A DNA stretch of 18,357 bases, taken from the IMG/VR virus record IMGVR_UViG_2563366979_000001, positions 1-18,357 of that record. One strand, given 5' to 3'. Below the pieces are notes generated by a model. That model had not been told where the DNA came from and did no database searches. It saw only the letters and a list, made by a program, of their open reading frames with translations. How positions within the stretch are numbered: the first letter of the stretch is position 1; every line of letters starts with the position of its first letter. The DNA is from a virus (lineage: Duplodnaviria > Heunggongvirae > Uroviricota > Caudoviricetes). A program made the position numbers and the translations under genes. Positions 2,322 to 8,012 of the stretch are shown piece after piece.

Positions 2322-2671
2322 TACTCCATGGAACTGAATATAGGCCTCTAAACCGTGTGCAGGCTCTGGCGAAGATCGCAGAAATCAAAGCTAAGTTTGG
2401 GCTGAAAGGAGCGATGAAATAGAGATAAAGTATTAGCTTAAAAATAAAGTATACCTAGCGAATATAATCTAGGAGTAATTGTAATGCCCGAAATGATTGA
2501 TTGCGTTAGTAATAAAATTTTTCTTCCATTGTTGTGAAATCATTTAGCCATAAAGTTTATGCAGAGATTTTATTTTATTTTTGAGTTGATTTTTTTGTAA
2601 CGATCTGTATATTTCGCGCCTCTTGTCATATCAGTTATTTTTTTCATTATATTCATAACGTTGATTGAACT

Positions 2672-5600
2672 ATGACCACTGTGAATAAAAAGTTAAAAAA
2701 AACTGCATCTGGCGCGATTACATGGTCGGTAATTGTTACCCAGATATTATCTCCAGTTTCTCTTTCTTTGATCCCGGCAAACAGTTTTGCATCATCTGAT
2801 AATAAAGATGTTACGCAAACTTATGCCAGTGATGAGCGGGCAAATAAAGTTGCCTCATTTGCAGCAAGTGCAGGTCAGAGTCTGGCGAATAATAATGCAA
2901 GTAGTTTTGCTGTAAATACTTTATCAACTCAGGCGACAAAAGAGATCGTCGACTGGTTGCAACAATATGGCAATGCGCGCATCAAGCTTAATGTCGATGA
3001 CTCTTTTTCCTTGAAGGATTCATCATTCGACTTTTTATATCCATGGCTGGATACTCAGGATTATGTGCTATTCAGTCAGACATCACTACATCGTACTGAT
3101 GACCGAAATCAGACCAATATTGGTTTGGGGATTCGTCATTTCACTCCTGATAACGCAATGTTGGGTGCGAATGTTTTCTATGATTACGATTTAAGTCGCA
3201 GTCACTCTCGTGCAGGTTTTGGGGTTGAGTACTGGAGGGATTATTTCAGGCTTGGTGTAAATACCTATTTTGGTCTATCTGACTGGAAGAACAGTCGGGA
3301 TATTGATGATTATCTGGAAAGACCTGCAAATGGCTGGGATTTTTCTGCTGAAGGATGGCTACCTGCTTATCCGCAATTAGGGGCATCTATTCAGTTTGAA
3401 AAATATTATGGTAAAAACGTCGGGTTATTTGGAAGCGATAACCTGCAGGAAAACCCTTACGCAGTTACTGGGGGAATTTCTTATACACCAGTTCCTCTGA
3501 TTAAGTTTTCTGCACAGCATAAGCAAGGACAGAGCAACGTTCACGATACAACCTTCGGTGTTGAGTTTAATTATCGCCCGGGCGTTTCCCTGGCTGAACA
3601 GCTTAGCAGCGATAATGTTGCAGTTATGCGAGAAGTCCAGAACCGGCGTTATGATTTTGTTGAACGAAATAACAACATTGTTCTGGAGTACAAGAAAAAG
3701 CATGCACTGAAAATCAGTTTGCCAGAGTCTATTCAGGGGGAGGGGGAATCAATCATCCCTGTAACACTGACAGTCAACAATGCCAGTGGTGGTATCAAGT
3801 CTGTACAGTGGAATGATAGTGCATTCACTGCGGCTGGCGGCAAGATCAGTGGAAATGGCACATCATGGCAGATCACTTTACCGGCTTATAAAAGCGAAGG
3901 TGTAAATTCGTGGAGTGTTGGAGCCACAGTACAGGATAACAGAGGCAACGTGTCCAACTATGCCGTGATGAATATTAGCGTTACTGATAGTGGTGTATCG
4001 ACAGCTGATTCGTCTTTTACACTGGATGGAGATTCGTCGCCGACGATCTCTGCTGATAGCCAATCTACTTATCCGATAGTATTAAGCCTGAAAGACAGTA
4101 ACGGTAAGGCATTAACCGGACTGGCTGATGACATTGAAATGTCAGTGGAATTTACAGCAGATAGCAATAGTGCTCGACAGCGTGAAACGGTAACTGCCCC
4201 GTCATTAGGCGCGGTAGAGGAAATCTCTGCTGGGGTATATCGCTCTGTTCTGACTGCTGGTTCGCAGGCTGGTACGGTACGTGTAACCGCAAAAGTTCAG
4301 GGAAAAACCTTTACTCTGAATATTAAGCAGGCAGCCATCACTGATAGTGATGTATCGACAGCTGATTCGTCTTTTACACTGGATGGAGATTCGTCGCCGA
4401 CGATCTCTGCTGATAGCCAATCTACTTATCCGGTAGTATTAAGCCTGAAAGATAGTAACGGTAAGGCATTAACCGGACTGGCTGATGACATTGAAATGTC
4501 AGTGGAATTTACAGCAGATAGCAATAGTGCTCGACAGCGTGAAACGGTAACTGCCCCGTCATTAGGCGCGGTAGAGGAAATCTCTGCTGGGGTATATCGC
4601 TCTGTTCTGACTGCTGGTTCGCAGGCTGGTACGGTACGTGTAACTGCAAAAGTTCAGGGAAAAACCTTTACTCTCAGTATTAAGCAAACAGCAGCAACAG
4701 AACCTGAATCTGAGGTCAGTGCTGTTTTAACCGCTGCACCAGCAGAGCAGGTAGTTGGTTACAATATTAATCTACAACTGGCAGTGAAGGATTCACAAGG
4801 AAATGCAATCACAGGTGATAATACTCTGAGCTTTTATGCCATTAACCAGGCTGAAGGAGTCGAGTTTGGGACTGTAACGGAAAAAGATGGTGTCTATAGC
4901 GCAACAGTAACTTCAAAACGAGCAGATAAGATTCGGATCGGTGTTAAATCGGATCGTCACGATTTCTCCGACCTTGAGAAAGAAATCTCCTTTATGGAAG
5001 ACCGAATTCAGTTCGCGTTCTCTCGTATTGAAGCCAGTAAAAATAATGCATTGGCTGATGGAAAACAACAGAATACAGTGACTGTAAGTCTTGCTGATCG
5101 TTTCGGCAATGTTGTTCCTGGTTATGCTGTTACGTTGTCCTTACCTGCGGGGATAACTCAAGTTGGTGGTGAACATGCAGTGTCAACTGACGAAAATGGT
5201 AATGCTGTTTTTGCGTTAATAAGCTCCACTCCAGGTTCTTACGTGATTAAAGCTCATGCTGGGCCTCAGGTATCTACTGAGTTAACTGTGACCTTTGCAT
5301 CAAATATGAGCGGAGCTTCACTGTCACTGACGCCTGAAAACAGTAGCTTAATTTCGAATATCCCTGCTAATGGTAAAGATGCTGCGGTATTGAATGTTCA
5401 GCTAACAAATAATACTAATGCGTCGGTTAATGGACAGAAGGTTCAGCTCATTACCTCATCTGAAGGGTTGTCTGTGCCGACAAATATCGTGACTGATTCA
5501 ACAGGGCATGTTTCTGTACCAGTTACAACGGTGAAAGCTGGTGAGTACACGGTAACTGCACGGGTGACTGATGGTTCTAATAGTGTGGAATCTGGCAGCG

Positions 5601-6621: not shown

Positions 6622-7663
6622 ACAGGTTAGCGTTTGGGTTCTGTTGTTGGTTAGTGGTTTTTATGGGGGCTCCCAGGTTTTTAGTAAACCACTCAACGAC
6701 TCTGTTTATAATAATTGGCTGATACCATGTATCATCGCCATGCTCAGCCCCTTCTACTAGCACGTACTCAGCGTTATCGCCGTTCTTCTTCAACATCCTG
6801 AATAGTTTGGCGCTTTGCTCAGGTGAAACCAGAGTGTCTTTGCTACCATGCATAATAAGAAATGGGGGTTTTACTCCTTTCATATGTCCGATTGGACTGG
6901 CGTTTAGCGCTTTTTCTTTTGACGCTGTGATGGGGGCTCCCGCAAAATCTCTGAATGCAGGGCCATTGATCATTAAGGCTTCGGTTACGGCAGGAGAGCG
7001 ATGAACCTCCTGCACTGATTCAGGGAACCCTTCGCCAATATTCAACAAGTCAGAAATCCCATAAAGTGTGGCAACTGCCTGAACATCTGAGGATTGCTGA
7101 AGAAAGTCACCTTTATCAAAGGTTTTGTCACCATTTGTAGTTCCCATCATCTGAGCAAGCCATCCACCGGCAGAGTCACCCAGAACTCCGATTCTTTGAG
7201 GATCAATCCCATAATTGCTGGCATGCTCTCTCAGGTAACGTATTGCAGCTTTTCCATCCTCAACTGGTGCTGGAAATGTATCAGGAATTGTTCTGTATTC
7301 TACAGCGGCCACAACAAAACCAGCTTCTGCCAGAGCCATTCTCATTTCAATAAATTTGTCATGTTCAGAAGACATGAATCCGCCGCCGGGATAATAAATA
7401 ATGGCTGGTTTTAAATCATTTGTTCGCGGGACAAGAACTGACATGTGAAGCTGTCTGACAGAACGAGTTCCTTTTATCTGGGAATAAACAACATCACCAA
7501 TGAGATCGACCTGGTTTCTGGTCGGTGAAACACTAATGATATCTGCACCCGGGGTGTAACCAGGAAGATTAGTCTGGACAGGTGTTGCACAACTCCCGAC
7601 CGACATGGCCATTGACATACCATACAATAGTGTTGCAGATGATAATATCTTGTTAATTTTCAT
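6620..7663 (-). CDS. Secreted (probable lipoprotein) alpha/beta-hydrolase, esterase/lipase-like
   Basis: 347-aa ORF; N-terminal signal peptide with lipobox-like MSVGSC; nucleophile elbow GDSAGG (GxSxG), later HGSKDTLV and EGAEHGDD consistent with a Ser-Asp-His triad. Confidence 0.85.
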   Translation of the reverse strand: MKINKILSSATLLYGMSMAMSVGSCATPVQTNLPGYTPGADIISVSPTRNQVDLIGDVVYSQIKGTRSVRQLHMSVLVPRTNDLKPAIIYYPGGGFMSSEHDKFIEMRMALAEAGFVVAAVEYRTIPDTFPAPVEDGKAAIRYLREHASNYGIDPQRIGVLGDSAGGWLAQMMGTTNGDKTFDKGDFLQQSSDVQAVATLYGISDLLNIGEGFPESVQEVHRSPAVTEALMINGPAFRDFAGAPITASKEKALNASPIGHMKGVKPPFLIMHGSKDTLVSPEQSAKLFRMLKKNGDNAEYVLVEGAEHGDDTWYQPIIINRVVEWFTKNLGAPIKTTNQQQNPNANL

Positions 7664-8012
7664 GTTTTACATGCCTTGACTTATCGGATGATATTCTCTT
7701 ACTGAATTTAACGGCAGTTTAATAGCCGTACAACTCGTGGTAGCCAGGGAAATATCCCAGTCGTGGTTAAGGTTGTACTTGACGGCTATTATTTCAACAA
7801 TGCTTAAAGTGAGAGTTTAAGATTATGCGTATGTTTTACAGTCCGAGTAGATTCTGACCAATAGCTTCTTTGTATAATTCTGTCAGAAATAAATCTTGGC
7901 TTGCATGAAGTTTGAGACCTTATCTTGTTTGATTATGAATAATCAATTCGCCATAATTGTATCACCGGAGCCTGAACAACTCCGGTGACTTCTGCGCTAA
8001 ACGGGGACGTTT

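Follow-up and report, generated by a model that had tools for sequence, protein, structure and literature searches.

An intact inverse autotransporter gene and a convergent esterase gene in the cargo slot of a DLP12-type prophage of Escherichia coli

Do an adhesin gene and an esterase gene that face each other in a decayed lambdoid prophage form a functional pair, or do they represent two independent pieces of phage cargo that came to lie side by side? This question is raised by a stretch of 18,357 nucleotides (IMG/VR virus record IMGVR_UViG_2563366979_000001, positions 1 to 18,357; hereafter the window), which as a whole represents a DLP12-type cryptic prophage of Escherichia coli extending from intD to appY. 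Between the replication gene P and the conserved ylcH-ninB block it carries a 3.9-kb gene encoding an adhesin of the intimin/invasin family and, in convergent orientation, a gene encoding an exported alpha/beta-hydrolase. Both open reading frames were found at the positions assigned to them in an earlier annotation of the DNA (the sequence-only reading), which had taken their tight pairing as a hint of a functional link. The comparative data described below point to a different answer, namely that two separate prophage cargo modules ("morons") probably stand next to each other in the slot between P and ylcH-ninB of a DLP12-type prophage at argU.

This interpretation is based on the distribution of the two genes across 5,426 complete genomes of E. 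coli. The junction of the pair, in the order P-adhesin-esterase-ylcH, was detected in 420 genomes, including those of sequence type 131 (ST131), as against 53 genomes in which the adhesin gene directly adjoins ylcH without an esterase gene (P-adhesin-ylcH) and 172 in which the esterase gene is located next to ybcK without an adhesin gene (P-ren-emrE-ybcK-esterase-ylcH). The esterase gene is present in 670 genomes in total, and an IS66-family element separates the adhesin and esterase genes in about 50 more genomes, as estimated from evenly spaced rows. Pairwise alignments of these arrangements revealed breakpoints at 2412/2413, 6615-6622 and 7968/7969, which delimit an adhesin module of approximately 2413-6615/6622 and an esterase module of 6616/6623-7968, the borders of which meet within 7 bp at an intergenic hairpin. 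Since the modules occur separately and their borders meet at this hairpin, a functional pairing of the two genes is not supported. The adhesin unit is thus present or absent between conserved phage genes, with sharp borders and its own hairpin terminator, as is characteristic of a moron, and no description of an inverse autotransporter moron was found in the literature searched.

The same separation was observed outside the complete E. coli genomes. Eight loci from another Escherichia species, Erwinia, Pectobacterium, Pluralibacter, Enterobacter, Selenomonas and Clostridium contain esterase homologues with 34-96% identity, and none of the eight includes an inverse autotransporter gene within 8 kb. 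Moreover, the isolated lambdoid phages Lambda_4C10, 4A7, D2, 1W, 3W, Perceval and PhiR47_2 carry the gene order ren-emrE-ybcK-esterase without the adhesin gene. The adhesin itself was found in none of 50,697 phage entries, and two weak protein-level matches to other inverse autotransporters, located in a 501-kb Salmonella record and in a 2.1-kb unannotated record, do not look like phage genes.

The hairpin at which the modules meet is located in the 36-bp gap between the two genes and consists of a 9-bp stem with 7 G-C pairs and a 3-nt loop, with T-runs on both strands. The proposal that the convergent genes share one bidirectional terminator agrees with a scan that called an intrinsic terminator in either direction. 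The hairpin is kept in adhesin-only loci, and esterase-only loci contain another hairpin (AGCCCGCATAAGTGCGGGCT) in the same place; the hairpin of the window travels with the adhesin module.

The assignment of the adhesin to the intimin/invasin family of inverse autotransporters (type Ve) was confirmed, and the gene is intact. A hidden Markov model search identified the Pfam domain IAT_beta (PF11924) at residues 58-334, N-terminal to the passenger, with an E value of 8e-101 and 337.6 bits against a cut-off of 22.3. Residues 97-341 match two solved barrels, that of Yersinia invasin (4e1t, E 1e-73) and that of intimin (4e1s, E 7e-63), and several Big_1 and Invasin_D3 stretches were detected by Pfam in the same protein. 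The barrel is preceded by a putative long signal peptide, as read from the translation: the protein starts with MTTVNKKLKK, and this lysine-rich beginning is followed by a hydrophobic core and the putative boundary NSFA/SS at about residue 40. Pfam detected no LysM domain in the stretch that leads from this signal peptide to the barrel.

The passenger is composed of approximately nine domains, comprising a D00-like domain, two 119-residue repeat domains, five Big_1 domains and one divergent tip domain. Seven of the eight segments that were scanned, with one copy of the 119-residue repeat among them, match Big_1 and/or Invasin_D3, and the match of the tip domain to Big_1 is weak (E 0.005). Domain D00 of intimin (6tqd) aligns to residues 342-442 and an FdeC fragment (4e9l) to residues 517-665, and the best fold match of the passenger model in the PDB is the passenger of Yersinia InvD (5ldy). 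An AlphaFold model of residues 983-1303 displays two confident immunoglobulin-like (Ig-like) domains followed by an all-beta tip of low confidence. A C-type lectin domain at the tip was neither detected by Pfam nor apparent in this model, in which the tip has low confidence; phmmer yielded nothing significant for the tip domain in the PDB, and a homologue search with the last 218 residues returned one fragment, so that no deep alignment of the tip was possible.

Homologues of the adhesin have lengths of 1184, 1302/1303, 1421 and 1540 amino acids, i.e. they differ in steps of 119 residues that correspond to one to four repeat copies; the length of the stalk therefore varies by whole domains. 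The barrel is 98% identical between alleles, and the passengers are approximately 91% identical. A diverged barrel in the ST131 allele was considered and rejected, as the DNA coverage of 67% turned out to be an artefact of BLAST joining across the tandem repeat, the identity of the barrel being 98%.

With respect to the known inverse autotransporters of E. coli, seven groups have been distinguished: intimin, FdeC (1415 amino acids), YeeJ (2359), IatA (465), IatB (725), IatC (2934) and IatD (1747) (PMC6714894, Goh et al. 2019). LysM domains occur in IatC, IatD and YeeJ, and lectin caps in IatC and IatD (PMC6714894). The closest of these characterised proteins is FdeC, as BLASTP yielded a single colinear alignment of 1261 columns with 33% identity to FdeC of strain SMS-3-5, compared with 30% identity to YeeJ of K-12. 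The equivalog cut-offs of NCBIfam were all missed. IatC, although the best NCBIfam match, was rejected on its score (395 bits for the N-terminus against 2400) and on architecture; intimin (328.8 against 1400 bits) was rejected owing to this score, the lack of LysM and of the intimin C-terminal domain according to Pfam, and the all-beta model of the tip. IatA (YchO; 272 against 508) and IatB (SinH; 321 against 999) were dismissed on NCBIfam scores, and IatD was set apart by architecture alone (1303 against 1747 amino acids, no LysM, no lectin cap). An FdeC/EaeH orthologue was likewise rejected in view of the 33% identity and the location in a prophage at argU instead of the chromosomal fdeC locus. 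From these sequence comparisons, the most fitting description of the adhesin is that of an FdeC paralogue carried by prophages, not of an FdeC orthologue.

A disruption of the adhesin gene that might have escaped inspection by eye was not found, since the identical 1303-residue product is recorded on at least eight contigs of other assemblies. The 3.9-kb reading frame is also intact in hundreds of genomes, in complete and decayed prophages alike. Databases list the protein as 'inverse autotransporter beta domain-containing protein', 'adhesin' or 'invasin', and the matching PHROG families phrog_7803 and phrog_16344 are of unknown function. The gene had been credited with an AT-rich leader of 350 bp; an AT-rich leader is indeed present, but its length is 249 bp, and the remainder of the 350 bp consists of an 81-bp remnant of P together with a deletion scar. 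The same distance of 249 bp between P and the adhesin gene was observed in intact prophages, and the leader presumably contains the adhesin gene's own promoter.

The second gene specifies an alpha/beta-hydrolase of the BD-FAE family (PF20434; residues 80-290, E 8e-45, 153.5 bits against a cut-off of 26.8), and related alpha/beta-hydrolase families match as well. The catalytic triad Ser164 (in GDSAG), Asp276 and His308 and the motif G93-G94-G95 are invariant in 16 homologues. The nearest solved structures are 6nkf (E 2e-37), the bifunctional GH43-CE protein 6mly and the acetyl xylan esterases 6xyc and 6tkx; a single-sequence AlphaFold model of the enzyme had a mean predicted local distance difference test (pLDDT) score of 35 and was unusable. 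Homologues with 63-75% identity stem mainly from the plant-associated genera Dickeya, Pectobacterium, Pantoea, Erwinia, Kosakonia and Rhizobium, one homologue of Dickeya aquatica, which may correspond to the secreted FaeD of Dickeya, being labelled 'Ferulate esterase' by UniRef, and the PHROG family phrog_3341 is annotated as 'esterase'. Glycans of plant or host origin are most likely its substrates, from which the enzyme would cleave acetyl or feruloyl esters.

The sequence-only reading of this gene as convergent and encoding a secreted alpha/beta-hydrolase was borne out for orientation, enzyme class and export, but free secretion is less likely. Its N-terminus has the form MKINK...SVGS-C25-A, resembling a lipobox, in all six Escherichia loci that were read. 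Because of this lipobox-like motif (SVGS-C25 followed by alanine) in the Escherichia alleles, a lipoprotein is favoured over a free secreted enzyme, and the E. coli esterase is probably anchored in the cell envelope. By the standard sorting rule, alanine at position +2 would route it to the outer membrane. Between the start of the gene and the right border of its module, the scan yielded no promoter-like match on the minus strand.

The positions of all features considered here are compiled in Table 1.

Table 1. Features of the adhesin and esterase modules and of the adjoining prophage regions (coordinates of the window)
Feature	Coordinates	Strand	Remarks
DGQHR-domain gene, 3' remnant	2061..2341	-	Left edge of the early-region deletion
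Replication gene P remnant	2342..2422	+	Last 81 bp, ending in LAKIAEIKAKFGLKGAMK and stop; translation; 3' end of 'replication protein P' in intact prophages
AT-rich leader of the adhesin gene	2423..2671	+	249 bp, 26.9% GC
Inverse autotransporter (type Ve) adhesin gene	2672..6583	+	1303 amino acids, intact
Putative long N-terminal signal peptide	2672..2791	+	Residues 1-40; read from the translation; colinear with the FdeC N-terminus
Beta-barrel translocator domain	2843..3673	+	Residues 58-334; PF11924
Passenger	3695..6580	+	Residues 342-1303; about nine beta-sandwich domains; segment-wise Pfam, PDB match, AlphaFold
Tandem repeat	3983..4686	+	357 bp, 2.0 copies, 98% identity; TRF; one Ig-like domain per copy
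Bidirectional intrinsic-terminator-like hairpin	6595..6615	.	AGGGAGGGC-taa-GCCCTCCCT; scan calls a terminator on both strands
Exported BD-FAE-family alpha/beta-hydrolase (esterase) gene	6620..7663	-	347 amino acids
Esterase upstream region to the right border of the module	7664..7968	-	Adhesin-only loci regain homology at 7969
Promoter-like site and inverted repeat	7929..7989	+	TTGATT-17-CATAAT; inverted repeat CACCGGAG...CTCCGGTG; upstream of ylcH/ybcN; scan match; conserved

In the model that we favour, the first module (about 2413-6615) consists of the AT-rich leader, the inverse autotransporter gene and a hairpin terminator belonging to it. Export of the adhesin would proceed by the known type Ve pathway, in which passage through Sec is followed by insertion of the N-terminal 12-stranded barrel into the outer membrane, and the C-terminal passenger would then be threaded outwards by hairpin export to yield a rod-like adhesin of about nine Ig-like domains, the length of which would shift with the copy number of the 119-residue repeat. 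By analogy with FdeC, YeeJ and IatB-D, the protein most likely mediates adhesion or biofilm formation, and expression of YeeJ and IatB-D was reported to promote biofilms (PMC6714894). The example of FdeC also makes a role of the adhesin in virulence or colonisation plausible. The gene is probably silent under laboratory conditions, as was found for other inverse autotransporters of E. coli (PMC6714894), owing to its AT-rich leader, through which silencing of the H-NS type may act. In an intact prophage O-P precedes the adhesin gene in the same orientation, so that early rightward transcription could extend into the latter on induction; the promoter region for this transcription is deleted in the window. 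The second module (about 6616-7968) carries the gene for an exported enzyme of the BD-FAE acetyl/feruloyl-esterase family, transcribed toward the first module.

Several observations weigh against parts of this model. The two sigma-70-like sites in the leader (2586-2613 and 2623-2650) are weak, and such sites do not exceed their frequency in shuffled sequence. The lipobox is a pattern match only; homologues from other genera have plain signal peptides, and one cluster representative has tyrosine at position 25. The tip domain was modelled with pLDDT values of 40-68, too low to suggest a ligand. No paper on either the adhesin or the esterase gene was found in a literature search, which also returned nothing specific on prophage-borne inverse autotransporters or on intimin-like genes in connection with ST131 or DLP12. 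Finally, the two genes occur together in approximately 475 genomes, compared with approximately 65 expected, a figure that is uncorrected for phylogeny. This excess is most simply explained by physical linkage in one slot and by clonal over-sampling, as in ST131.

Among the alternatives, the one that survives best assigns the esterase to the service of the phage and not of host metabolism, the enzyme acting in lysogenic conversion or exclusion by deacetylating O-antigen, capsule or peptidoglycan and thereby altering the receptors of other phages. Viable lambdoid phages do carry the gene beside ren, an exclusion gene, and its product is directed to the envelope, the E. coli protein having a putative lipobox. 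The nearest homologues, on the other hand, are found in plant-associated bacteria, where their genes are chromosomal or linked to transposons, the characterised family members act on xylan esters, and genes for O-antigen or capsule showed no connection with the esterase, all of which makes this role unlikely.

A functional unit of adhesin and esterase is, in our view, very unlikely. In such a unit the esterase would unmask or release the ligand of the adhesin by stripping acetyl or feruloyl groups from a glycan, or the adhesin would translocate the esterase as ZirT does ZirS. The intact junction is indeed found in most adhesin-bearing genomes, both products are destined for the cell envelope, and two-partner inverse autotransporters are known (PMC4943183, PMC6714894), but the genes are convergent and do not form one operon, and the separate occurrence of the modules, their meeting at the hairpin and the eight esterase loci devoid of an inverse autotransporter all speak against such a unit. 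In addition, partners of the ZirS/SinI type are encoded by co-oriented downstream genes and are related to Ig-like domains (PMC4943183); compared with the ZirTS and SinHI systems, the neighbour of the adhesin gene is convergent and encodes an alpha/beta-hydrolase instead of a co-oriented Ig-like substrate. Even less credible is an elaborated form of cooperation at the cell surface, according to which a lipid-anchored esterase exposes the ligand of the FdeC-like adhesin on mucus or plant glycans, or is exported with the help of the adhesin, and lambdoid phages spread a two-gene colonisation cassette whose presence in ST131 is adaptive. That the adhesin gene is a silent, functionless relic, kept because a decayed prophage is no longer purged, is highly improbable: the prophage of the window has indeed lost the early region along with almost every structural gene, and the inverse autotransporters encoded on the E. 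coli chromosome could not be detected in laboratory cultures (PMC6714894), but the reading frame has stayed intact here and in hundreds of genomes with complete and decayed prophages, its repeat number changes in frame in 119-residue steps, and the barrel has remained nearly constant between alleles with more divergent passengers.

The prophage that accommodates the two modules closely resembles DLP12 of K-12 at its ends, with 99.5% identity in intD and 98.7% in tfaX-appY, and its nin region matches K-12 from ylcH to quuD. Positions 1-12583 are 100% identical to scaffold KB733040.1 of assembly GCA_000352345.1, on which the prophage adjoins fimZ on the argU side. The gene order of DLP12 in MG1655 upstream of ybcN is peaD'-renD-emrE-ylcJ-ybcK-ybcL-ybcM-ylcH-ybcN; the sequence-only reading had correctly placed emrE, ybcK, ybcL and ybcM there, and the comparison of gene orders identifies the adhesin gene as prophage cargo in that very slot. 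In the complete lambdoid prophage at argU of AP022087 (99.6% identical), the adhesin-esterase pair directly follows replication gene P.

In the window, the match to intact prophages ends at 2041 and picks up again at 2342. An 86-residue reading frame at 2061-2321 represents the last 85 residues of a DGQHR-domain protein (phrog_7901, positions 269-353 of 355), which is annotated in full at the corresponding position of other genomes. At the junction 2341/2342 the last quarter of this gene is joined to the final 81 bp of P, a remnant with 49% GC. Everything from the DGQHR-domain gene to P has thus been deleted, as only the C-terminal quarter of the former and 81 bp of the latter are left. This junction was found in none of the complete genomes, and a comparable but distinct deletion (exoD'-peaD') affects the early region of DLP12 in K-12. 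An Rfam scan of the whole window revealed no known RNA family.

To the right, the segment singled out by the sequence-only reading extended to 8012 and took in a rightward promoter-like site that lies outside the esterase module. In phage 82 (X92588), the annotation of the homologous DNA lists putative -35/-10 signals together with a 'possible regulator-binding site', and the site of the window belongs to the nin region and not to the cargo. It suggests that the nin-Q block can be transcribed independently of the early rightward promoter.

Additional observations concern the mobility of the two modules. A lambdoid prophage that encodes another integrase and, within its immunity region, a Ser/Thr kinase-phosphatase pair (locus L003, 554-1762) also harbours the adhesin module, which is therefore not bound to argU-integrating relatives of DLP12. 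In some prophages with an identical adhesin, an extra insert between the esterase gene and ylcH (loci L020 and L021, 10993-13275) encodes a Bro-N/P22 antirepressor-like protein and small open reading frames, representing further mosaicism at the slot. A serine recombinase gene repeatedly precedes the esterase gene (loci L008, 7239-7871; L011, 7266-7889; L005, 7129-8655): a resolvase gene is found in this position in Erwinia tracheiphila and Pectobacterium, with a fragment of a Tn3-type transposase nearby in Erwinia, and in E. coli phages the esterase gene follows ybcK, which encodes a large serine recombinase. The esterase gene may therefore move as recombinase-linked cargo. The IS66-family inserts between the two genes are ISEc23 and ISCro1 (window 6623-6640; locus L006, 6409-8996), and at the insertion point the esterase gene loses its final few codons to the element, resulting in 343 instead of 347 amino acids. 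This C-terminus (window 6620-6640) is conserved across genera in the form ...[DN]A-[NSDK]L, with a terminal leucine that is invariant in 16 sequences, and the 15 residues preceding it are variable.

Elsewhere in the window, a second cargo slot (10134-12893) is located between Q (9586-9978) and the holin gene, where K-12 carries nmpC. It contains genes for a Blc-like lipocalin on the minus strand, a YbgA-like protein with a 2-thiouracil desulfurase domain and DUF1722, and an AraC-type regulator, the latter in DNA of 31-33% GC. The match to intact prophages stops at 13495, soon after the holin gene (12993-13298), and the next large open reading frame (13383-15665) encodes a tail fibre whose match to its family begins only at profile position 62. 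The end of homology at 13495 and the truncated tail fibre match indicate that the lysis, head and tail genes have been deleted. The tail fibre product contains many KTSETNAK(S/A)S(E/Q)TAA repeats, to which the extreme AT skew (+0.59) at 13750-14250 is due.

The adhesin is thus an uncharacterised member of a well-known family, and it is noteworthy for being phage-borne, variable in length and present in ST131. If expressed, it would represent an additional inverse autotransporter of E. coli, outside the six characterised in the 2019 survey and intimin, and it would be a candidate for a colonisation factor and for a surface antigen, which horizontal transfer can carry from one lineage to another. 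It resides on mobile lambdoid prophages in about one tenth of the complete genomes, ST131 included. The slot between P and ninB is a cargo hot spot that is filled with the adhesin gene, the esterase gene, emrE-ybcK or ybcL-ybcM depending on the strain. The practical value of these findings is modest until expression and binding are demonstrated.

Morons of lambdoid prophages include bor/iss, lom and the NanS-p sialate O-acetylesterase genes in prophages of enterohaemorrhagic E. coli. The two modules resemble these in being self-contained genes of presumed benefit to the host that are inserted between conserved phage modules, each having a terminator of its own and an atypical base composition; the NanS-p enzymes belong to a fold family different from that of the esterase.

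Compared with FdeC, the adhesin has the same overall plan, i.e. a long signal peptide (putative in the adhesin), no LysM domain, the IAT barrel and a series of Big_1-type Ig-like domains that ends with no C-type lectin cap. It differs in sequence (33% identity), in length (1303 against 1417 amino acids), in its near-identical 119-residue tandem repeat of variable copy number and in its position in a prophage cargo slot rather than at the chromosomal fdeC locus. With YeeJ, IatB (SinH), IatC and IatD it shares the type Ve family and the combination of a barrel with Ig-like repeats, but none of these proteins is of its size, and it contains neither LysM nor lectin domains according to Pfam. A homologous barrel, a D00-like first domain and a passenger model nearest to InvD (5ldy) connect it with intimin, invasin and InvD; unlike intimin and invasin, it has no LysM domain, no C-terminal lectin-like receptor-binding domain and no context of the locus of enterocyte effacement (LEE) or Tir. 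The esterase, in turn, shares the alpha/beta-hydrolase fold, the Ser-Asp-His triad and the family match of 153.5 bits with the founding member BD-FAE, a bifunctional feruloyl/acetyl xylan esterase (PMC8165983). The founder is encoded in a xylan utilisation locus (polysaccharide utilisation locus, PUL), whereas the gene described here is a lone cargo gene of prophages or transposons in Enterobacterales, with a putative lipobox in E. coli.

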